Shown: in pieces, positions 1-9,274 of the stretch | Position numbering within the stretch: position 1 is the stretch's first letter | Layout: each line of letters begins with the position of its first letter | IMG/VR virus record: IMGVR_UViG_2778261246_000008 | DNA: 23,044 nt | Strand: one strand, 5' to 3' | Source: a virus | Taxonomy: Duplodnaviria; Heunggongvirae; Uroviricota; Caudoviricetes | Position numbers and translations under genes: made by a program | The notes under the pieces: generated by a model | What the model was told of the DNA's origin: nothing | Seen by the model: the letters and a program-made list of their open reading frames with translations, nothing else | The model's database searches: none

Positions 1-975
1 TTACCCAGCAATAGGATTAAATCTCACCGCATCCTGCAAGTAATCCGGCGCAAGGTGGGCATAAATCATCGTTGTCTGAATCTTTGCGTGCCCCAGAATT
101 TTCTGGAGCGTCAGAATATTGCCGCCGTTCATCATGAAATGACTGGCGAAGGTGTGGCGCAGCGCATGAACAGCCTGGCCGTCAGGAACATCAGGTGCGA
201 CCGTTTTGATGACATCGCGAACCAATGGATAATCCAGCGTCGGAAACACCAGTTTCCCGCCCCGTTTTTTGATCTTTTCAAACAGGCTTTCAGAAATAGG
301 AACGGTACGGTTTTTGCTGTTCTTCGTTTTTGAAAAAGTGATTCGACAATGAAGAACACGGCGCTGCTCCAGTGCCGCTACCTCGCCCCATCGCGCCCCG
401 GTCGACAGAAGGATTTCGACAGCCAGCCGTTCATCGGGATTTTCAGCCAGTGCATCCAGCAACTGAACACATTCAGACTTACTCAGATATCCCATTTCGC
501 GCTCGTTAACCTTCATTCCTTTAAGGCCTTGAACGGGGTTATCGTTAAGAAAATGGCCGGATGAGATGAGTGCGGTAAACATCGCGCTTAACGCCCCAAT
601 CTCTCGATTTATGGTGCTGGGCTGTATCCCCTGCTCTATCCTGGACACACGTAGCTCGGTGAGCATCGTTGTATTAAGTTTATGCACGCACGGGTCATCC
701 ATTGCCTCACTCAAGCGCAGCAATTTAAGGCGCGTGTTATGCCCTGACTTCATTAGCTGGCCGTGGTATTTCCACCACAAGTCAATAAGCACTGACAGCG
801 GACGGCGATCAATGGAGTTTCCTTTCCACTCATTGTTATGCTGTTGCGCCAGCACCCACCGCTCATATAAAACTGCATCCGATTTCGTTTTAAATTTTTT
901 GCGAATGCGTTTGCCTTTACGCCCCTCAGGACGCATGTCAAGAAGATACCCTCCCGGAATTGATTTTATGCTCAT
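1..975 (-). CDS. int: Phage tyrosine integrase (P2 Int-like site-specific recombinase)
   Basis: The minus-strand ORF 1..1125 ends with a stop at 1-3. Its C-terminal half carries the tyrosine-recombinase signature (ARWGE...HALRHTFASHFMMNGG...LGH...TTMIYAH). I chose the internal start MSIKS (ATG at 975) because it gives a ~324-aa protein and avoids a 100-nt overlap with the upstream repressor gene; the N-terminus from there reads like P2 Int as I recall it. Confidence 0.9.
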   Translation of the reverse strand: MSIKSIPGGYLLDMRPEGRKGKRIRKKFKTKSDAVLYERWVLAQQHNNEWKGNSIDRRPLSVLIDLWWKYHGQLMKSGHNTRLKLLRLSEAMDDPCVHKLNTTMLTELRVSRIEQGIQPSTINREIGALSAMFTALISSGHFLNDNPVQGLKGMKVNEREMGYLSKSECVQLLDALAENPDERLAVEILLSTGARWGEVAALEQRRVLHCRITFSKTKNSKNRTVPISESLFEKIKKRGGKLVFPTLDYPLVRDVIKTVAPDVPDGQAVHALRHTFASHFMMNGGNILTLQKILGHAKIQTTMIYAHLAPDYLQDAVRFNPIAG

Positions 976-1024
976 TCGTGAAGCCCCAGCGTTACAAGAC
1001 CACCATGCCCCCAGCGTTCCATGA

Positions 1025-1336
1025 TTAGCCGGGCTGTGTGCCAGTCTTGCGGGATTTTTGAGAAGACGATGTGTTTTCTGGCCCATCAGGGGAGAGAGAA
1101 GGACTGATCTGCCCAGCAGCCTCATTTGTTTCGTTACTCATCAACCACGTAGTGTATTTTTTAAATTCCGGGTGCATTGTGATTTTCAGTAAAACCTCCG
1201 TTCCCACACCTCGAATACCAGTCTCGTATTGCTTAACCGTACCAACCGCAATACCTATTGAATCCGCGAACTTTGCCTGACTAAGCCCCTCAGATTCTCG
1301 AATTGCTTTTAGCTTCTTTGATATCTCTATTGACAT
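1025..1336 (-). CDS. C: Immunity repressor, HTH (XRE-like), P2 C-type
   Basis: Internal start MSIEISKKLKAIRESEGLSQAKFADSIGIAVGTVKQYETG within ORF 1025..1438 gives a ~103-aa protein with an N-terminal helix-turn-helix. It is transcribed divergently from the early operon and sits immediately upstream of int, as in the P2 C-int arrangement. Confidence 0.75.
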   Translation of the reverse strand: MSIEISKKLKAIRESEGLSQAKFADSIGIAVGTVKQYETGIRGVGTEVLLKITMHPEFKKYTTWLMSNETNEAAGQISPSLSPDGPENTSSSQKSRKTGTQPG

Positions 1337-1431
1337 GGTGTGCACCTGAATACTATATTGGTTATCAGTTGAGTACCACTTGACGCTACAAAGAGCCACA
1401 AATAGCACCAGATTGAATAGGTTATCACACC
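1330..1431. promoter_or_regulatory. Immunity switch region: candidate early rightward promoter (TTGACA 1330-1335, 18-nt spacer, TATATT 1354-1359) and direct-repeat operator candidates
   Basis: A sigma70-like -35/-10 pair is read directly on the + strand and overlaps the repressor start codon. The 8-bp direct repeat GGTTATCA occurs at 1360-1367 and 1420-1427 (extended 10/12 match atNGGTTATCA), flanking the putative early transcription start region. P2-type repressors bind direct repeats. Confidence 0.45.
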
Positions 1432-1710
1432 ATGGCAAAAGTCCTTAACACATACGAACAAGCGGATTTTGAGCGTTTGGCGGCGTTCTACCCATACCGT
1501 AATGAACATGGGCTACCGGTACTTGAAGAAAGCCTAGAGGATTATGCGAAACGCACAAATCAAAGCATTCTCGCTGTAAGAAGGCAGGCTGATAGATCGG
1601 TAATTCCCGTTACTCAAGAAGGAAGAAACACAAAACGCAAAGTAAATCTCTTCGCAATTTTCCTGAAAACCATCAGAAACGCAGAGAAATACGTGCAGAT
1701 GACAAAATAA
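1432..1710 (+). CDS. cox: Cox-like excisionase / early transcriptional regulator
   Basis: First gene of the rightward operon, divergent from the repressor. The segment DYAKRTNQSILAVRRQADRSVIPVTQEGR has the small winged-helix excisionase pattern and resembles the corresponding part of P2 Cox from memory. No obvious Shine-Dalgarno. Confidence 0.6.
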   Translation: MAKVLNTYEQADFERLAAFYPYRNEHGLPVLEESLEDYAKRTNQSILAVRRQADRSVIPVTQEGRNTKRKVNLFAIFLKTIRNAEKYVQMTK

Positions 1711-1724
1711 CGAGGTGTCATTTT

Positions 1725-2063
1725 ATGCTGAAGCAACGCCGTAATTTTTGTACCGGAACAGAACGCCACGCTAACCGTTTCACTACCAGTGCATCACGCA
1801 GCAACATCCGCTACAGCCTGAGTGATACACACGCAACGCCGGATGGCTACCCAGTAAAACAAATCGGCGAGCACGCCTGGCTGATTGAGAAAGCTGGAAT
1901 CGTGATCCACAAATGCCCACGCAATCCGTTTACCGGAAACCGCATTTTTGCACTGAGCTGTGGCGACAATCAGTTCGGGCAGGATTTCACATTATACGAA
2001 GCACTTCGCACGGTTGATCGTCTGCTTCGCGGGCAAAGTTTTATTAAACAGGCTGATTTATAA
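1725..2063 (+). CDS. Hypothetical early protein (Cys/His-containing, possible zinc-binding)
   Basis: ORF with a GAGGTG Shine-Dalgarno 8 nt upstream of the ATG and consistent codon usage, in the early operon between cox and A. No family recognised. Confidence 0.6.
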   Translation: MLKQRRNFCTGTERHANRFTTSASRSNIRYSLSDTHATPDGYPVKQIGEHAWLIEKAGIVIHKCPRNPFTGNRIFALSCGDNQFGQDFTLYEALRTVDRLLRGQSFIKQADL

Positions 2064-2073
2064 CAGGTGCTTT

Positions 2074-2361
2074 ATGACCAAAGACCATGCACAAGGTGTA
2101 TTTATCCGTTTTATTGATTTTCGCGGTGAACTGTTATTACGTGCATCCGCTATTGACGGAGTGACTCCGGCGGGTAAAAACGGAGCCGACGAAGCCACTT
2201 ACGTTTATCTGAACGGCACGCGACTGCTTGTGGAACTTCCGTACCAGACCGTACGAGAAATCATCAGCGAAGCTGAAAAGGCACGCCAGGTTAATGGCGA
2301 TGAACCCTATATCGAAATTATTTGTATGGATTCAGAGGCTGAAATACAGAAAGCAGATTAA
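2074..2361 (+). CDS. Hypothetical early protein
   Basis: Internal ATG at 2074 (MTKDHAQG...) within ORF 1960..2361, preceded by an AGGTG Shine-Dalgarno and starting 11 nt after the upstream stop. Confidence 0.55.
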   Translation: MTKDHAQGVFIRFIDFRGELLLRASAIDGVTPAGKNGADEATYVYLNGTRLLVELPYQTVREIISEAEKARQVNGDEPYIEIICMDSEAEIQKAD

Positions 2362-2372
2362 AGGGCGTTGTG

Positions 2373-2615
2373 ATGGGCAAAGAATATAAAACTCTCATTA
2401 ACAAAGCACTTGAGCGTTTTTATTTTCGCTTAAGTGCATCAGGCGCTCATGCTGAACGTGCGGCCCGTGACTCATTGACCAGAGCAATCCGAAGTCTGTA
2501 TGACGTGGCTTTTTACGCTGATGATCTGGATGCACTTAACGAACTTTCCGAGCTGATCTGTGCCGCAGAATGCGGGGAACATATTGAACCGTATAAGCTG
2601 GGAAATATCGCATGA
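2373..2615 (+). CDS. Hypothetical early protein
   Basis: ORF 2370..2615 with an ATG at 2373; tightly packed with its neighbours in the early operon. Confidence 0.55.
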   Translation: MGKEYKTLINKALERFYFRLSASGAHAERAARDSLTRAIRSLYDVAFYADDLDALNELSELICAAECGEHIEPYKLGNIA

Positions 2616-2725
2616 GTATATTTATTTCATGGCTTGTTCTGATTATTTCGGTGGTCTGCGCCATTGGGATTATGCGAATTATTAATTCAGTAAAAAAGAT
2701 TGAACGCTTTTTCACTGAAGAATAA
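2612..2725 (+). CDS. Small single-pass membrane peptide (37 aa), unannotated in the ORF track
   Basis: ATG at 2612 overlaps the upstream stop as ATGA. Hand translation gives MSIFISWLVLIISVVCAIGIMRIINSVKKIERFFTEE: a ~20-residue hydrophobic helix followed by a charged tail. Confidence 0.4.
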   Translation: MSIFISWLVLIISVVCAIGIMRIINSVKKIERFFTEE

Positions 2726-2811
2726 CCGCGCAAATAAGACCCCAGGTTAAATAAGAAAATGTGAAAACAATCCGCATTCGCGGAGGTATTCGCACACGCC
2801 AAGGAGGCGTA

Positions 2812-3015
2812 ATGGCAATTAAGCATTTTCCTGTCGTTCGTTTCACCTCCAGAGGACGTGAATACGAAGTTGACGAACGCCTGATTACCACAATCGACAA
2901 ACACCGTTCAGAAAAGGATGCACATCACATCTATCTCACTGACGGCACTTACTTCTGCGCCACCAACGTGGTGCAGGTGAATCTTATCAGACAGGTACAG
3001 GAGTCACGCAGATGA
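2812..3015 (+). CDS. Hypothetical early protein
   Basis: ATG at 2812 is preceded by a strong AAGGAGG Shine-Dalgarno (2801-2807). It lies in frame within ORF 2761..3015. Confidence 0.55.
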   Translation: MAIKHFPVVRFTSRGREYEVDERLITTIDKHRSEKDAHHIYLTDGTYFCATNVVQVNLIRQVQESRR

Positions 3016-3257
3016 CCATTCTGGACTACATCGCTGCCAATCCGGGTTGTAGCAGTGGAGAAATCGCCGCAGCACTGAATACACCAACCACAACCATTAA
3101 TGCGGAGCTACGCCGTCTCTGGCGCAGCGATTTAGTCACAAGAAAAGAGCGCAAAACAGGCGGTCGCTTTTCTTATCAGGTAAACCTGATGCCGTTTGGG
3201 TGTAGCAACCCACTAACCCAGATGTTCAACCAGCTACTGAGGGAAATCAGAGCATGA
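3012..3257 (+). CDS. Small winged-helix DNA-binding protein (putative regulator)
   Basis: ATGA overlap with the upstream gene and an AGGAG Shine-Dalgarno. The segment SSGEIAAALNTPTTTINAELRRLWRSDLV resembles a MarR/wHTH recognition helix-wing. Confidence 0.55.
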   Translation: MTILDYIAANPGCSSGEIAAALNTPTTTINAELRRLWRSDLVTRKERKTGGRFSYQVNLMPFGCSNPLTQMFNQLLREIRA

Positions 3258-3382
3258 GCACCTCCAACTGCCGGAAACCACGTCGGGCTTCAGCAGCTCA
3301 TCCGGCAGCAAAACAAACTCCATTAATTCCTGTTCCGGGCCTTTCCTGCACCTTGCGGCGGGAGGCCTTCGCACATCTGTAA
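3254..3382 (+). CDS. Possible small ORF (42 aa, basic/proline-rich)
   Basis: ATG at 3254 overlaps the upstream stop as ATGA, and GAGGGA lies 9 nt upstream. The ORF fills the gap before the next gene. Weak call because it is short and low-complexity. Confidence 0.2.
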   Translation: MSTSNCRKPRRASAAHPAAKQTPLIPVPGLSCTLRREAFAHL

Positions 3383-3398
3383 CAAGAGGATTGCCGCA

Positions 3399-3764
3399 AT
3401 GATTCTCGCCAACGACTTTCTTGAATACCTGCTCAACACAGAGCGTGATCTTGCCGCTCGCGTGCGTGATCGTTATGACATGTACCTGAAATCCCTGCCT
3501 GTACCGCAGCTCGCTGACGGAAAGATTGTTATTGATGGTCGCTACATGATTGACAGCCACGAGGGAAATTACAGGCTTTACCGCATTGAAGGTGGCACCC
3601 CGTCCGTTATTGGCATTTACCAGCGCCCATCCTCTGCAATCGTCGATGTGATTGCCGACAGCATCCGCATCACACATCGCCATGCCGACACAGAAGACAC
3701 CGTGCTGGAAATTCAGCGGCTGGCTACAGTCTGCCGCGACACCCTGAATGGCATGACGAAGTAA
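3399..3764 (+). CDS. Hypothetical early protein
   Basis: ORF with an AAGAGGA Shine-Dalgarno; immediately upstream of gene A. Confidence 0.6.
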   Translation: MILANDFLEYLLNTERDLAARVRDRYDMYLKSLPVPQLADGKIVIDGRYMIDSHEGNYRLYRIEGGTPSVIGIYQRPSSAIVDVIADSIRITHRHADTEDTVLEIQRLATVCRDTLNGMTK

Positions 3765-3770
3765 ATCACT

Positions 3771-6593
3771 ATGACGGCAGAGTACATCAGGGACTGGCAA
3801 CAACCGCGCCACGCAGTGGGGCGTGAAGGAACGGGGATCCCCGCTCCTGAATCCGCGCTTTCCTCCTGGCTGGATGCCTACCGGGTAGAGAACGAGCGCC
3901 GCCAGGAAATGGCTGATGCGGCCTTCTCCGCCACGCCACTGGGCAACCTGATTAATAAAAGCCTGGACGCACAGGAAAAACAGGACAAAACCATCACACT
4001 GGCAGGAGACGCCAGAAAACAGGCACGCGGCGCGGTGGATGAAGCCATGGCCTCGCTGCGCCTGCTGCCGTCCTATCTGCGCGATCCGCTTATTCGCCAC
4101 CTCTCCTTCCTGCGCAAAAAACAGGAAGCCGATCGCCGGAAAGGCAAAAAGAGCTGGCAGGCGGAACGCTATGCACGCGGAACCCTGCGCAAAATATTCG
4201 AACGTCTGGATCGCACTGACGGACACTGGCTGACACCGGGTTATCGCTCCCTTGCCGGACGCGAACGCCTGGACGATTTGCTTTACCTGCCGCAGCTCAA
4301 CAAACACCAGATACAGACGCTGGCCACCATGACGGCGGCGATGTTCAGCAGCACCTTCGAAAAACTCTGCGATGGCTTTGGCGCGACCGATGGCGAACTG
4401 ACCATGGATGTAACGCTGAAGGCGTATCAGATGCTGGCCCGCATGGCGTTACACCTGCACATCATGCCTCCACATTATGACGCACTGACAACAGATAAAG
4501 ACCGGAGGAACGAACCGGACACGGAGCTGCTGCCGGGCGCAATCCTTCGCCTGACCTGTGCGGAATGGTGGAAACGCAAACTGTGGCTGTTACGTTGCGA
4601 GTGGAGAGAAGAACAACTCCGCGCCGCCTGTCTGGTTTCCAGAAAAACATCACCCTATCTGAGCCAGGACGCGTTAAGCGAGTTTCGCGCACAGCGCGAG
4701 AAAACACGCGATTTCCTGAAAAGTTTCATGCTGGAAAACGAAGACGGGTTCACGATTGATCTCGAGACAGTGTATTACGCGGGAGTAAGTAACCCGGTTC
4801 ACCGTAAGGCAGAAATGATGGCCACCATGAAGGGGCTGGAACTTCTGGCCGAAGCCCGTGGCGACAAAGCGGTGTTTCTGACTGTCACCTGCCCGTCAAA
4901 ATACCACGCCACAACAGAGAACGGTCATCCGAATCCCAAATGGAACGGGGCCACCATGCGCGACTCCAGCGATTACCTAGTTAACACGTTTTTTGCAGCG
5001 GTCCGCAAGAAACTGAACCGCGACGGCCTGCGCTGGTATGGCATCCGCACGGTGGAGCCTCACCATGACGGCACCGTGCACTGGCATATGATGGTCTTTG
5101 CTCATCCGGAAGAAATCGACACCATTGTGTCCCACACCCGCGATATTGCCATTCAGGAAGATCGTCACGAGCTGGGTGATGATATTACCCCACGCTTTAA
5201 GGCGGAGTACGTCGACGGCTCAAAAGGCACGCCAACCAGCTACATCGCCACCTACATCGGAAAGAACCTGGACAGCCGCGCCGTGGATGGCATCGACCCG
5301 AAAACGGGCAAGCCACGCGTTGACCACGAAACAGGTAAATCAATGGCCGAGAGCGTGGAGCGCGCCATCGGCTGGGCGCGCCTTCACCGGGTCCGCCAGT
5401 TCCAGTTCTTTGGCATCCCCTCCCGTCAGGTGTGGCGTGAACTCCGCCGCCTTGCCAGCCAGATGGCACGCAACCCGGAAGGCCCGCAACGGCTGAAGGA
5501 TGACGCAATGGATGCGGTACTCGCTGCCGCTGATGCCGGATGTTTTGCCACCTACATTGAAAAACAGGGTGGCGTACTTGTTCCGCGCAAGGACTACCTG
5601 ATTCGCACAGCCTACGACCTCGCAGATGAGCTGAACGATTACGGCGAACAGAGTGTACAGATTTACGGGATCTGGTCGCCATTCATCGGGGAATCCTCCC
5701 GTGTGTGCACGCATCCGGATAACTGGAAGCTGGTAAGACGTAAACCGGAAGCGGAAGACAGCGCCCGCGAAAATGGTTTTGACCTTCAGGGCGGCCCTGC
5801 CGCCCCTTGGACTCGTGGCAATAACTGTCCCCGTGTACAGGAAACGGACAACAACGGGACAGAACAGCCGGAAGAACGGCCAGCACCGTGGCCGCAGCTC
5901 CCTGATGGCGTTGAAGTGAACGAATGGATGCGCTCACTGAAACGACACGAACGCCGGGCGCTGATGCGTTCGCTTCGTGACAAACAGGCAAAAAACAGCA
6001 GCGATGAAATGCAGAGCTGGACACAGAGCCGCAAACAGCCACGGCCTTTGCCTGATAACCACGAATTACTCGCTAAAGAATGGCGGGAGTCTGCTGAATC
6101 TCTCGGCCTGCATATCGGTGAACAACAGATGCAGCACCTGTTACGGGGCGGCAGTCTGTACGTTGACGGCAGCATCATTGCACCGCAGGGATTTGAAATT
6201 GTACGCAAACCGGATACCCGCCCGGACAGCCGAATCACGCAGCTCTGGCAGCGCCTGAGCCGTAATCATGGCGTAAGCAGCACGGAGATCCGCCATAACC
6301 CGGTCGCCAGCTATCTGGCACAGCTGGGGGCATCAGACCCTGAAGCCGCCGCACGCCTGGCATCCACACTTCAGCAGGACCAGAACACCATGAAAACACC
6401 CGTTACCGTGCTTTCTGACATGCTGCGCGCCATCCGCGACGCAGAGCACGCACAGAGAATCAGTGAAACCACTGAACGCGCCAGCCGCAAAGCAGACCTG
6501 CTGCGGGGTGGCATGACCAGTGGAAACAAAAAACAGACAGAAACGGGATTCACAAATCCCATAAATGAGCAAAAAACGTGCCGCGATATATGA
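3771..6593 (+). CDS. A: Rolling-circle replication initiator / endonuclease, P2 gpA family
   Basis: 940-aa ORF with the HUH metal-binding motif (TVHWHMMVF) and the paired catalytic tyrosines (TSYIATYIGKN) typical of P2 A-type initiators. Position after the early small genes matches P2. Confidence 0.9.
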   Translation: MTAEYIRDWQQPRHAVGREGTGIPAPESALSSWLDAYRVENERRQEMADAAFSATPLGNLINKSLDAQEKQDKTITLAGDARKQARGAVDEAMASLRLLPSYLRDPLIRHLSFLRKKQEADRRKGKKSWQAERYARGTLRKIFERLDRTDGHWLTPGYRSLAGRERLDDLLYLPQLNKHQIQTLATMTAAMFSSTFEKLCDGFGATDGELTMDVTLKAYQMLARMALHLHIMPPHYDALTTDKDRRNEPDTELLPGAILRLTCAEWWKRKLWLLRCEWREEQLRAACLVSRKTSPYLSQDALSEFRAQREKTRDFLKSFMLENEDGFTIDLETVYYAGVSNPVHRKAEMMATMKGLELLAEARGDKAVFLTVTCPSKYHATTENGHPNPKWNGATMRDSSDYLVNTFFAAVRKKLNRDGLRWYGIRTVEPHHDGTVHWHMMVFAHPEEIDTIVSHTRDIAIQEDRHELGDDITPRFKAEYVDGSKGTPTSYIATYIGKNLDSRAVDGIDPKTGKPRVDHETGKSMAESVERAIGWARLHRVRQFQFFGIPSRQVWRELRRLASQMARNPEGPQRLKDDAMDAVLAAADAGCFATYIEKQGGVLVPRKDYLIRTAYDLADELNDYGEQSVQIYGIWSPFIGESSRVCTHPDNWKLVRRKPEAEDSARENGFDLQGGPAAPWTRGNNCPRVQETDNNGTEQPEERPAPWPQLPDGVEVNEWMRSLKRHERRALMRSLRDKQAKNSSDEMQSWTQSRKQPRPLPDNHELLAKEWRESAESLGLHIGEQQMQHLLRGGSLYVDGSIIAPQGFEIVRKPDTRPDSRITQLWQRLSRNHGVSSTEIRHNPVASYLAQLGASDPEAAARLASTLQQDQNTMKTPVTVLSDMLRAIRDAEHAQRISETTERASRKADLLRGGMTSGNKKQTETGFTNPINEQKTCRDI

Positions 6594-6669: not shown

Positions 6670-7629
6670 ATGAAAATTTGTATCGACGACGGCTCCACCA
6701 ACATCAAGCTGGCATGGACTGAGAACGGCGAACGCCGCAACGCCATCAGCCCGAACAGCTTCAAGTCGGAATGGTCTGCGCCGTTCGGTGGCTCGCAGCC
6801 CGCGAACTACATGCTTGATGGCGTGCGCTATGGTTTTGATCCGGTCAGCGATCGCTTTGTCCAGACGACCGACACGCAATACCAGTACAGCGATGTGAAT
6901 GTCATTGCCATTCATCACGCGCTGGTCAAATCAGGCATCACGCCACAGGAGGTGGATGTGGTTGTCACCCTGCCATTGAGCGAGTATTTCGACACAAACG
7001 CACAGCCGGACATGGCCAACATCAGCCGCAAAAAAGCGAACGTTATGCGCCCGGTGGAGTACCAGAACGGCGAAACATTCACTATCCGTAACGTACGGGT
7101 TATGCCTGAATCCATTCCGGCTGGCTTTAAGGCACTGGCTGACATGAGTCCGTTTGAATCCCTGCTGATTGTGGATTTGGGCGGAACCACTCTGGATGTG
7201 GCAAAGGTTCAGGGGCAACTGGCAGGTATCAGCCAGGTGTTTTGCGATCCACACGTAGGCGTTTCTCTGATGGCCGATGCCGTACTGTCGGTGATGGCCA
7301 CTAACGGTATGCGCACCAGTCACCACATCGCCAATACCATTATCGAACATCGCCATAATGAAGCCTGGCTGCGCCAGCACATCCACAATGACGCGCATTA
7401 CGCCAGCCTGATGGCGATTATTCGTGAAAAGGAAGAAACACTGAAACAACGCGTGATCCGCGCGCTGGCGGGTTTTTCGGGTTACGGGCGGGTGATGGTT
7501 GTCGGTGGCGGGGCGGAGATTGTGGCACCCGCTATCCGCGAAGCCTGCGGAGTTAATGCGACTTTCATCGCGGACGGGGTGCCACAGTTTGCTCTGGTTA
7601 ATGGGCTGTACGCAATGGACAAGGAGTAA
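6670..7629 (+). CDS. parM: Actin-like ATPase of the ParM/StbA family
   Basis: The N-terminus MKICIDDGSTNIKL, plus SPNSFK, YSDVNVIAIHHAL, VMPESIPAG, LLIVDLGGTTLD and VVGGGAE, line up with the phosphate-1, connect and adenosine motifs of plasmid R1 ParM as recalled. AAGGA Shine-Dalgarno upstream. Confidence 0.85.
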   Translation: MKICIDDGSTNIKLAWTENGERRNAISPNSFKSEWSAPFGGSQPANYMLDGVRYGFDPVSDRFVQTTDTQYQYSDVNVIAIHHALVKSGITPQEVDVVVTLPLSEYFDTNAQPDMANISRKKANVMRPVEYQNGETFTIRNVRVMPESIPAGFKALADMSPFESLLIVDLGGTTLDVAKVQGQLAGISQVFCDPHVGVSLMADAVLSVMATNGMRTSHHIANTIIEHRHNEAWLRQHIHNDAHYASLMAIIREKEETLKQRVIRALAGFSGYGRVMVVGGGAEIVAPAIREACGVNATFIADGVPQFALVNGLYAMDKE

Positions 7630-7633
7630 ACCA

Positions 7634-7945
7634 ATGACGACACCAACCAGACGGATAAGTTTCTATCTGAAGCCCGCCGCCGTCAAGAACGAAGGTGAAG
7701 CATGCGCCTGGCTGGACAGCCTTACACCAGAAGCGCGCAAAAGCGGCCAACGCGTGGCTTTTCTGGCCGGGCTGGCACTTCTGAAAATGAATCCGGCAGA
7801 GGCTTACCGACTGGCTGCATGGGCTGATGATGAAGCGTTATCAGTGACACAAACCAGGACAGAACGCCCCGCGTCACAGCCAGTATCAACCGCACAGATA
7901 ACCAGTCAGATGGCTGGAAATATCCGGGCGTTATTTCCCGAATAA
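7634..7945 (+). CDS. parR: ParR/StbB-like adaptor, probable ribbon-helix-helix DNA-binding protein
   Basis: Immediately downstream of parM with an AAGGAG Shine-Dalgarno. RISFYLKPAAV...AFLAGLALL...IRALFPE parallels the R1 ParR pattern from memory. Size (103 aa) and position fit the family. Confidence 0.6.
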   Translation: MTTPTRRISFYLKPAAVKNEGEACAWLDSLTPEARKSGQRVAFLAGLALLKMNPAEAYRLAAWADDEALSVTQTRTERPASQPVSTAQITSQMAGNIRALFPE

Positions 7946-8008
7946 CACAACATCAGTGCGCATCCGCCCTGATGACTTTAACCCGGGAACATAAACAAGG
8001 GGGACACA

Positions 8009-8344
8009 ATGCAACGCATTGACAGAGAAAAAGCGCAGCGACTGATTGAGCGGATGGAAGCGCTGGCGAAAGAAGAAAATGTCAACATCCAAAAAATAGC
8101 TGAATGTGGCCAGATAGTTCTTCGTCGTGAAAAAGACCTCAAACAACTGATGTCTGGCGAAACCAGCAAAACATGGACTTCAGGTGAGGAGACGATTTAT
8201 TGCAGCTTCTGCAATAAATCCCAGTACGAAGTCACAAAGGTGATTGCCGGACCGTCTGTTTACATCTGCAATGAGTGCGTTGATTTGTGCAATGAAGTTA
8301 TCAGGAGAGAAGTGACAGACCATGAAGAAAAAACGCATGAATGA
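8009..8344 (+). CDS. Stand-alone ClpX zinc-binding-domain-like protein (C4 zinc ribbon) with an unrelated N-terminal helical extension
   Basis: The C-terminal segment [40 protein letters not shown] is near-colinear with the N-terminal zinc-binding domain of bacterial ClpX (CSFC...CxxC), but there is no AAA+ module. AGGGGGA Shine-Dalgarno. Confidence 0.8.
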
Positions 8345-8510
8345 CGAATTTGACGGCTTTTAATTTTATCGGGGCGCACTGTCGCCCTGCATGGAGAAAA
8401 ACAATAAAAAAGATGAATAACTGCTCATGTCAGACGCGCTGCGGGCAAGTCTGGCACCCTGCCCTGTCTCCGCAAAGGCTGTTGTCTTAACACGACAGAG
8501 TATGCCAGCA

Positions 8511-8918
8511 TTAAATATAATCTTCTTCGTAGTCGCTGATTAATTCATTGCCATAATCAGACAGCAATTTCAAAGCAAAGGTAACTTCCTCAAGGGTAGC
8601 TATCCCCATTGCTGAAAACACCGTTAATTTAACCAGCAGCAGGGAGTTTGAAAGTTCGGAAGAGTTCATCATTAAAAATATTGATGCAGCCTGAAAAGCT
8701 GTGCGTTTATTCCCATCATGAAAGGCATGAGCCTTGGCTATACCAATCAAATACATAGCAGCCAGAGCATGAATATCATCAACCCCTTCATAGTAGTGTA
8801 GTGTCCTGACGCGATTTAAAGCACCTTCAAGTAGCCCGTCATTGGCATTTCCGCTCTGGGGTAAAGTTTCAGCATGGATACGTTCTACTTGTTCTTTTGA
8901 CAAAAACACTATGTCCAT
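8511..8918 (-). CDS. doc: Doc-family toxin (Fic/Doc fold)
   Basis: Contains the Fic/Doc motif HAFHDGNKRTA. Its start overlaps the stop of the upstream antitoxin gene as ATGA on the minus strand. AT-rich relative to the phage backbone. Confidence 0.85.
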   Translation of the reverse strand: MDIVFLSKEQVERIHAETLPQSGNANDGLLEGALNRVRTLHYYEGVDDIHALAAMYLIGIAKAHAFHDGNKRTAFQAASIFLMMNSSELSNSLLLVKLTVFSAMGIATLEEVTFALKLLSDYGNELISDYEEDYI

Positions 8919-9274
8919 CAGTTATCCTCAAGCTTTTTAATGATATCCGCATGTTTTTCTCTTGTACGCTTCATTGCATCTTCAAAAGACAATCCTTTTT
9001 TTCTCTGTGCGACAAGAGCTGGATGACGTTTTTCCAGATCTCTCACTGCATTTATTAAGAGTGGTTGCTTCATTTTGTTTATTTGATCCCGCAGTTTTTT
9101 GGTTTTGCCAAGGACAGCCCGTATTTCAGGACTAAGATCAGAACCAGCAAGAACAACATCCTTCCCTCCCTGCGCCGTGATAACGACACTGCCACCGGAA
9201 GAAAGGTAATCCAGAATTTCACTCAGGTTCTCACGAAATTCATCATCAGTTACAGTTTTCATATTCATTTCCAT
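8918..9274 (-). CDS. phd: Phd/YefM-family antitoxin
   Basis: Small acidic protein immediately upstream of doc and translationally coupled to it. The N-terminus (KTVTDDEFRENLSEILDYL) fits the Phd/YefM pattern. The true start may be one of the internal ATGs (MEMNMK). Confidence 0.7.
   Translation of the reverse strand: MEMNMKTVTDDEFRENLSEILDYLSSGGSVVITAQGGKDVVLAGSDLSPEIRAVLGKTKKLRDQINKMKQPLLINAVRDLEKRHPALVAQRKKGLSFEDAMKRTREKHADIIKKLEDN

Follow-up and report, generated by a model that had tools for sequence, protein, structure and literature searches.

The stretch of DNA analysed here, called the window over its whole length of 23,044 nucleotides (nt), is the IMG/VR virus record IMGVR_UViG_2778261246_000008. 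Its sequence places it among the P2-type prophages, in the P88 group (Xuanwuvirus, Peduoviridae), and in the 2.5-kb region that was compared it is 100% identical to the chromosome of Escherichia coli 1303. Its early operon contains a short open reading frame (ORF) on the + strand, which starts with an ATG at position 2612, ends with a TAA whose last base is 2725 and encodes the 37-amino-acid (aa) peptide MSIFISWLVLIISVVCAIGIMRIINSVKKIERFFTEE; gene and product are referred to as pep37 below. The start codon overlaps, in an ATGA, the TGA stop codon (2613-2615) of the gene upstream (2373..2615), which codes for an 80-aa DUF4754 protein. The original prediction, made from the letters of the window alone, had placed here an unannotated single-pass membrane peptide that is translationally coupled to its upstream neighbour and had fallen below the length cut-off of the ORF track. 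The reading frame, the length of the product and the position of the ATGA were all confirmed in the sequence, and our analysis agrees that the length cut-off is why the peptide had been missed.

Start region and predicted product of pep37

The ATGA overlap, which was present in all tabulated junctions of related loci (Table 1), was also found in every junction printed for divergent loci, including those of homologs with only 50-65% identity. The pep37 start codon is preceded by a weak Shine-Dalgarno (SD)-like GGGA, whose predicted duplex with the anti-SD sequence (-4.6 kcal/mol) is in line with the values obtained elsewhere in the operon (-3.1 kcal/mol for the gene in the cox position, -3.8 kcal/mol for the 95-aa gene and -4.8 kcal/mol for the DUF4754 gene). 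In divergent pep37 homologs this site is a stronger SD, either GAGG (-7.6 kcal/mol) or GAGGAG (-8.5 kcal/mol).

Over its six frames the whole window contains 254 ORFs with a length of 30 aa or more; of these, pep37 ranked top in hydrophobicity, with a score of 2.81 for its best 19-residue Kyte-Doolittle window (KD19). AlphaFold2 (AF2), supplied with an alignment of 34 sequences, modelled the peptide as one helix spanning residues 2-35 (predicted local distance difference test score, pLDDT, 87.9). The hydrophobic helix and charged tail of the original prediction were recovered as a single predicted transmembrane (TM) segment followed by a basic amphipathic tail (Table 1). The tail, RIINSVKKIERFFT, is amphipathic when drawn as a helix (hydrophobic moment, shuffle p = 0.013), and its variable positions (25, 26, 29 and 32) map to the polar face, while M1, S6, W7, L10, I11, A17, G19, R22, I24, I30 and F34 show little or no variation in the family. 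No lysine or arginine stands ahead of the hydrophobic stretch and four stand behind it (R22, K28, K29 and R32), to which a class of 41-aa homologs adds KRRK. According to the positive-inside rule the basic flank of a TM segment is cytoplasmic; since all lysines and arginines lie C-terminal of the TM segment, the C-terminus is predicted to be cytoplasmic, which implies an N-out/C-in topology with an N-terminus that would barely reach the periplasm. A signal peptide or lipoprotein was considered and rejected, as there is no n-region with lysine or arginine, the S-V-V ahead of C16 misfits a lipobox, and homologs have M, F or I in place of C16.

Conservation and selection

For comparison with relatives, 83 loci were gathered from IMG/VR and from genomes via the neighbouring DUF4754 gene. 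The pep37 frame is open in all 83, which comprise 28 protein and 37 DNA variants, and in 93 of the 94 related loci overall. The only locus with a broken frame, in phage 503458 (NC_049341.1; 57% identity), was examined as a counter-example and rejected, as its DUF4754 and replication genes are broken by indels as well. Multiple frameshifts in this record affect the DUF4754 gene and pep37 as well as the replication gene, now annotated as two coding sequences, which points to sequencing errors in the form of indels or to decay of the prophage; the record was treated as an artefact of record quality or decay and as unfit evidence for a loss of pep37. When 1.84 billion representatives were scanned exhaustively with phmmer, 8 pep37 clusters were returned, down to 50% identity. 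A profile search, with a profile headed by a 41-aa homolog, returned 156 clusters of the family, almost all from Escherichia, all named 'hypothetical' and none with a Pfam domain. The family consists of two length classes, one of 37 aa (ending in FFTGE) and one of 41 aa (ending in FTGDKRRK). The 50-65%-identical homologs P0080 and P0081 belong to other P2-like prophages, in which they directly follow DUF4754 with a 4-nt overlap, and the position after DUF4754 with the ATGA overlap is repeated in P88, in the 83 loci and in the divergent loci L087-L094.

Nei-Gojobori counts in the pep37 frame gave proportions of synonymous (pS) and non-synonymous (pN) differences of 0.51 and 0.21 between the window and L087, and of 0.81 and 0.24 between the window and L091. 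In the two off-frames, pS was approximately equal to or below pN in every substantially diverged pair. Within the P88 group, the ratio of non-synonymous to synonymous diversity (piN/piS) of pep37 was 0.23. When substitutions were placed at random at the observed divergence, as few amino-acid changes were obtained with p = 1.3e-3 and 5e-5, and hydrophobicity is kept in the 50-65%-identical homologs (KD 2.7-2.8). These comparisons show purifying selection on pep37 in the annotated frame only. Conservation of the frame in related phages had been proposed as a check of the original prediction; the frame is kept, at the same position, down to 50-65% identity, and the coding reading is borne out by the open frame in nearly all loci, by the excess of pS over pN and by the simulations.

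The end of the protein varies. Of the 83 loci, 7 have a frameshift form of 45 aa (Table 1), which also recurs in several clusters of the databases (one of them, P0105, has 63 members); the last four residues are therefore dispensable or variable. These tolerated frameshifts, the very short ORF, the weak SD and a conserved hairpin that lies 46 nt downstream would all fit the view that no functional protein is made, the ORF being due to chance or its translation itself being what matters (for instance by stabilising the mRNA or through an effect on the downstream hairpin). However, amino acids are conserved beyond the mere openness of the frame, with pS exceeding pN 2-3-fold (p down to 5e-5), the KD values of the divergent homologs are retained, and gene callers and the Prokaryotic Genome Annotation Pipeline (PGAP) call the gene consistently. 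We therefore regard the absence of a functional protein as extremely unlikely, and pep37 is very probably a real small membrane protein.

Annotation and distribution

The claim that the gene is unannotated did not survive a look at public records. RefSeq lists it as EC1303_RS28820 (WP_000021668.1, 'hypothetical protein') with exactly the same coordinates and an exact sequence match; gp07 of phage P88 (YP_009113050.1, 'membrane protein') is 91.9% identical (tblastn, E = 2e-13); and UniRef names the exact sequence 'Prophage membrane protein' and places it in a cluster that has 118 members at 90% identity. With a probe of 171 nt spanning the ORF, matches were obtained in 1393 of 5426 complete E. 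coli genomes, so that about one quarter of these genomes carry pep37, O157:H7, ST131 and O111 strains among them. PGAP calls a 'hypothetical protein' at this place in all 11 sampled genome records whose match covers the ORF. pep37 is an already annotated, widespread small phage membrane protein, for which the original observation was correct and its interpretation partly over-reached; as it stands, it is a routine case of a small conserved phage membrane protein that annotation pipelines have already caught.

The prophage region was also found in a record with a Gram-positive genus label (NZ_JBQPOM010000071.1, 'Vagococcus sp. WN89Y'), where the DUF4754 protein is 98% and the DNA 95.8% identical; the label is probably the result of assembly contamination or mislabelling.

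Searches of families and structures

Pfam gave no match for pep37 of the window (E up to 1) or for 34 homologs (E up to 10), the best match in PHROGs was phrog_5620 (unknown function, E = 0.58), and NCBIfam returned only weak TM-type matches for the family. None of the PADLOC families matched pep37, a profile search of PDB sequences yielded chance matches only (E at least 0.23), and Rfam had no match anywhere in the window. An assignment to TatA/TatE (MttA_Hcf106; PRK04561) was tried and rejected: homolog P0080 reached E = 0.004 and 16.9 bits against a cut-off of 104 bits, pep37 of the window had no TatA match, and the Pfam TatA family was matched by none of the 34 members. The type I toxin families Hok/Gef, TisB, Ldr, Ibs, ShoB and DinQ showed no Pfam match to pep37 or the 34 homologs, no holin model of PHROGs or Pfam was matched by pep37, and neither were exclusion and defence families (Imm, Sie, Sim, Cor and the PADLOC systems) in PADLOC, PHROGs and Pfam. 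Of the original statement that the architecture of the peptide is typical of toxins, exclusion peptides or holin-like modulators, the single-pass membrane architecture is supported; none of the families of these proteins matches pep37.

Relation of pep37 to DUF4754

AF2 predicted the DUF4754 protein to be a helical hairpin (helices 4-48 and 52-66, pLDDT 88.8), and a Foldseek comparison of this model with the PDB gave no match with E <1. Translational coupling is a common route to partners made in a fixed ratio. pep37 could therefore be imagined as the membrane anchor and partner of DUF4754, a stoichiometric complex of the two tethering the helical-hairpin protein to the inner membrane, and the adjacency of the genes everywhere, the ATGA at each inspected junction, divergent lineages included, and a coupling typical of fixed-ratio partners are what such an anchor would lead one to expect. 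However, the divergent loci L087 and L088 are 100% identical in DNA for ~450 nt from the first pep37 codons onward, while their DUF4754 genes just upstream are only ~50% identical (pN 0.42); the same pep37 DNA thus stands next to DUF4754 alleles with differences at 42% of their non-synonymous sites. The identity on the pep37 side together with the divergence of DUF4754 places a mosaic recombination breakpoint at the junction of the two genes (locus coordinates ~4760-5450). Across lineages, pep37 is also much better conserved than DUF4754 (pN 0.21-0.24 vs 0.46-0.54), with no sign of co-variation. 'DUF4754' proteins of 103-128 aa, considered as natural fusions of DUF4754 and pep37, turned out to be frameshift read-throughs, mostly in the wrong frame and mostly singletons. 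On this evidence a DUF4754 anchor is quite unlikely. The breakpoint and the higher conservation of pep37 argue that its constraint would be independent of DUF4754, and the pattern reads as constraint by a factor unaffected by variation in DUF4754, for which the membrane itself or a component of the host would be the simplest candidates.

Expression context in the early operon

The left end of the window has the C/Pe/cox...A arrangement of P2, in which pep37 is the fifth cistron. In line with the original placement of the peptide in the early operon, the gene lies behind a Pe-like promoter in a layout of the P2 type. The sole internal promoter-like site (2398..2426, 9/12) is at chance level. 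With the repressible Pe upstream and no dedicated promoter above chance level, pep37 is not expected to protect lysogens, and superinfection exclusion, one of the roles proposed originally, is unlikely in its classical, prophage-expressed form.

Exclusion could instead act early in lytic growth, pep37 in the inner membrane blocking the entry of secondary phage DNA in the manner of T4 Imm and not of a lysogen Sie. A small predicted inner-membrane product of an early operon would suit this role, as would the narrow, phage-restricted family and the moderately fast pace at which amino acids vary between close relatives (28 protein variants were counted in the 83 loci). Nevertheless, pep37 shows no similarity to exclusion or defence families in Pfam, PHROGs or PADLOC, lysogens would go unprotected for want of a promoter above chance, and 37 aa leave essentially no periplasmic part for contact with a tail or tape measure; early exclusion is accordingly judged unlikely.

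The lysis cassette, which consists of a holin (phrog_126), an endolysin (phrog_465) and Rz (phrog_214), is located in the late region at ~16.1-17.4 kb, ~13.5 kb away from pep37 at 2.6 kb, and this distance makes the suggested holin-like modulator role unlikely. A broader form of the idea is a membrane-perturbing toxin or lysis-timing modulator that oligomerises, depolarises or thins the membrane, like a type I toxin, a pinholin or a TatA-like peptide. The short TM segment with its amphipathic helix does resemble small pore-forming or depolarising peptides, and the weak TatA match of one homolog (E 0.004) points the same way. Such a toxin is nonetheless very unlikely, given that pep37 would be made early, long before lysis, that Hok, TisB, Ldr, Ibs, ShoB, holin and TatA families of Pfam gave no match, that the TatA score is far below the cut-off, and that neither an antisense promoter nor an Rfam small RNA was detected. 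For minus-strand promoter-like sites the search covered positions 1000-4000 and found none, although a weak or unconventional one could escape it. During lytic growth, pep37 may be toxic or act in exclusion.

Proposed role of pep37

We propose that pep37 would be transcribed from the Pe-type promoter upon infection or induction, that ribosomes terminating on DUF4754 would restart at the ATGA with the aid of the weak SD, and that the product, at an early stage of lytic growth, would insert into the inner membrane in the N-out/C-in orientation. There, its TM helix, with the conserved S6, W7, S/A13, A17 and G19, might act on a conserved putative host membrane protein or complex. pep37 would then be a non-structural accessory factor for host modulation and not an obligate partner of DUF4754, and by position it would correspond to the fil/dhr block of phage 186. 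For the combined reading, a genuine small membrane protein with an accessory early action on a host inner-membrane target, we estimate a probability of about 0.5; the mode of action taken by itself, the TM helix working on a host membrane target, is put forward tentatively.

Several observations weigh against this proposal. Conservation in the TM segment shows no significant helical periodicity (p = 0.09), so that a specific packing face is suggested at most; an omega of ~0.2-0.3 indicates fairly relaxed constraint; and 45-aa frameshift and 30-aa variants of pep37 are common. DUF4754 and pep37 are adjacent in every locus examined, which may mean that they work jointly, and a weak terminator-like hairpin on the + strand (2020..2034) lies between Pe and pep37. 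Literature searches for DUF4754, the pep37 sequence and the accessions found no mention, and the literature on P88 and on small membrane proteins in prophages and early operons gave no functional statement for pep37. Likewise, the gene is not discussed in the papers on P88 and PhiSM, two phages that form plaques on K-12 and thereby make it tractable (PMC5285337, PMC6456863). If the target of pep37 is indeed a protein of the host inner membrane, the peptide would provide an additional tool or inhibitor of 37 residues, and such host targeting would also help to explain the non-essential part of P2-type early operons.

Downstream stem-loop and insertion hotspot

A conserved stem-loop occupies the gap after pep37 (Table 1). 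It is kept in divergent P2-like prophages while its loop varies freely (TCCGC-NNNN-GCGGA); the inner 5-bp stem is 99.1% paired, with one two-sided change from C:G to T:A, and the outer stem is 85.7% paired. In the minus-strand direction a conserved T-rich stretch, TTGTTTTC, follows the hairpin, which scores as terminator-like on this strand. Its place in the operon is the slot of the intra-operon terminator in P2 and 186. A mini-ORF at this element (GTG at 2761, MKTIRIRGG..) was rejected in favour of the hairpin, as most relatives carry GTA. Between the hairpin and the 67-aa gene, at ~2797-2811, lies an insertion hotspot inside the early operon: pep37 and the 67-aa gene, 86 nt apart in the window, are separated by 350-540 nt in more than 20 of 85 close relatives. 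The long-gap relatives that were inspected carry an extra + strand gene for a protein of 105-138 aa at ~2798 (MHAKEEGII.., MKAKEEGII.., MNTK..), and the divergent L087 and L088 have other genes at the hotspot position.

A bolder reading would take the hairpin and the hotspot as marks of a swappable accessory module and pep37, with a short N-out TM helix and an amphipathic helix lying in the plane of the membrane, as a TatA-like early membrane effector, new for P2-like phages, that plugs into and poisons a conserved machine of the host inner membrane (translocase, division or transport, for instance) or thins the membrane locally, with host shut-off or a block to secondary DNA entry as the outcome; we consider this very improbable.

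Other features of the prophage

Past the 67-aa gene the operon continues with a MarR-like gene and an ash remnant, followed by a gene for 121 aa and by replication gene A. The ash remnant (3283..3402) is annotated in RefSeq as an 'ash family' pseudogene and is N-terminally truncated inside the early operon. Replication protein A (3771..6593) is 940 aa long compared to 761 aa in P2, with ~440 residues past its Phage_GPA domain (179-503). Several cargo modules are located between gene A and the portal gene (6670..9274, Table 1), among them a plasmid-type actin-like partition module, which is unusual in an integrated P2-like prophage. In the relative L088 (GCA_900536625.1, locus 1..2795), a Mu-type transposase and MuB adjoin the P2-like early region and replace integrase, repressor and cox, which suggests a Mu-like insertion or a hybrid element.

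Table 1. Coordinates of pep37, of elements in and around it and of other features of the window.
Feature	Position	Strand	Basis or remark
Integrase	left end	-	layout of prophage
HTH_3 repressor gene	1025..1336	-	RefSeq annotation; divergent from early operon
Pe-like early sigma-70 promoter TTGACA-18-TATATT	1330..1359	+	11/12 consensus; between repressor and first early gene
92-aa gene in cox position	1432..1710	+	RefSeq; phrog_575 Cox-like, E 0.008
DUF4761 gene	1725..2063	+	RefSeq; PF15958, 1e-67
95-aa hypothetical gene	2074..2361	+	RefSeq
DUF4754 gene, 80 aa	2373..2615	+	PF15946, 2.8e-54
Weak SD-like GGGA, 8 nt upstream of pep37 ATG	2600..2603	+	anti-SD duplex
ATGA start/stop overlap, putative translational coupling site	2612..2615	+	sequence; in 83/83 tabulated junctions
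pep37 gene	2612..2725	+	37-aa single-pass inner-membrane protein (predicted), P88 gp07 family
Predicted TM helix of pep37, SIFISWLVLIISVVCAIGIM, codons 2-21	2615..2674	+	KD19 2.81, AF2 helix, conserved residues
Basic amphipathic tail of pep37, RIINSVKKIERFFT, codons 22-35, predicted cytoplasmic	2675..2716	+	hydrophobic moment, placement of lysine and arginine
T5 run	2708..2712	+	1-nt deletion in relatives gives the 45-aa C-terminal frameshift form (..ERFSLxNNxxNKTxx)
Conserved stem-loop in 86-nt gap after pep37	2760..2794; inner hairpin TCCGC-ATTC-GCGGA 2771..2784		minimum free energy -15.2 kcal/mol, z -3.5
67-aa gene, phrog_3459	2812..3015	+	strong SD; next early gene beyond the 86-nt gap
ParM/StbA	6670..7629		cargo region
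StbB plasmid-stability protein ORF	7499..7945		Pfam domain in C-terminal half
ClpX-type C4 zinc-finger protein	8009..8344		cargo region
Doc/Fic toxin	8511..8918	-	cargo region
Phd-like antitoxin	8918..9274	-	cargo region

Comparison with known systems

The type I toxins Hok, TisB, Ldr, Ibs, ShoB and DinQ are similar to pep37 in size and in having a single hydrophobic helix, but their loci stand alone, whereas pep37 sits within a polycistronic operon in which no antisense RNA or promoter was detected. T4 Imm is a small phage inner-membrane protein made early in lytic growth and about twice as long as pep37; this protein and other phage exclusion proteins are likewise small and located in the inner membrane, and have no sequence similarity to pep37. 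Sie proteins of prophages are made in the lysogen, whereas such expression is not expected for pep37 behind Pe. TatA and TatE share with pep37 a short N-out TM segment followed by an amphipathic helix and the local motif of ISW, a hydrophobic run, G and basic residues, but they possess a hinge glycine, whereas the AF2 model of pep37 is one continuous helix with no hinge. AcrZ, CydX, MgtS and SgrT are proteins of 30-50 aa with an N-terminal TM helix and a short cytoplasmic tail that pack on a larger membrane protein (PMC12648545). Regulators of this type share the architecture of pep37 but are chromosomal host genes, and for the families that Pfam holds there was no match to pep37 at E up to 10.

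Within P2-like phages, Fil and Dhr of 186 and Orf78 of P2 are, like pep37, small (56-75 aa) and encoded in the first block past the switch genes, before the intra-operon hairpin or terminator. According to the 186 record, fil inhibits cell division and dhr inhibits host DNA replication; the record has no note on their essentiality. These three proteins have no sequence similarity to pep37, belong to different Pfam and PHROG families and lack a clear TM helix (KD19 of 1.26, 0.49 and 0.17, respectively, vs 2.81 for pep37). P88 gp07, finally, is the same gene as pep37: it has the same length of 37 aa, the same position after DUF4754 and the same ATGA overlap, and its product differs from that of the window by a few substitutions (V15A, N25H and E36G).

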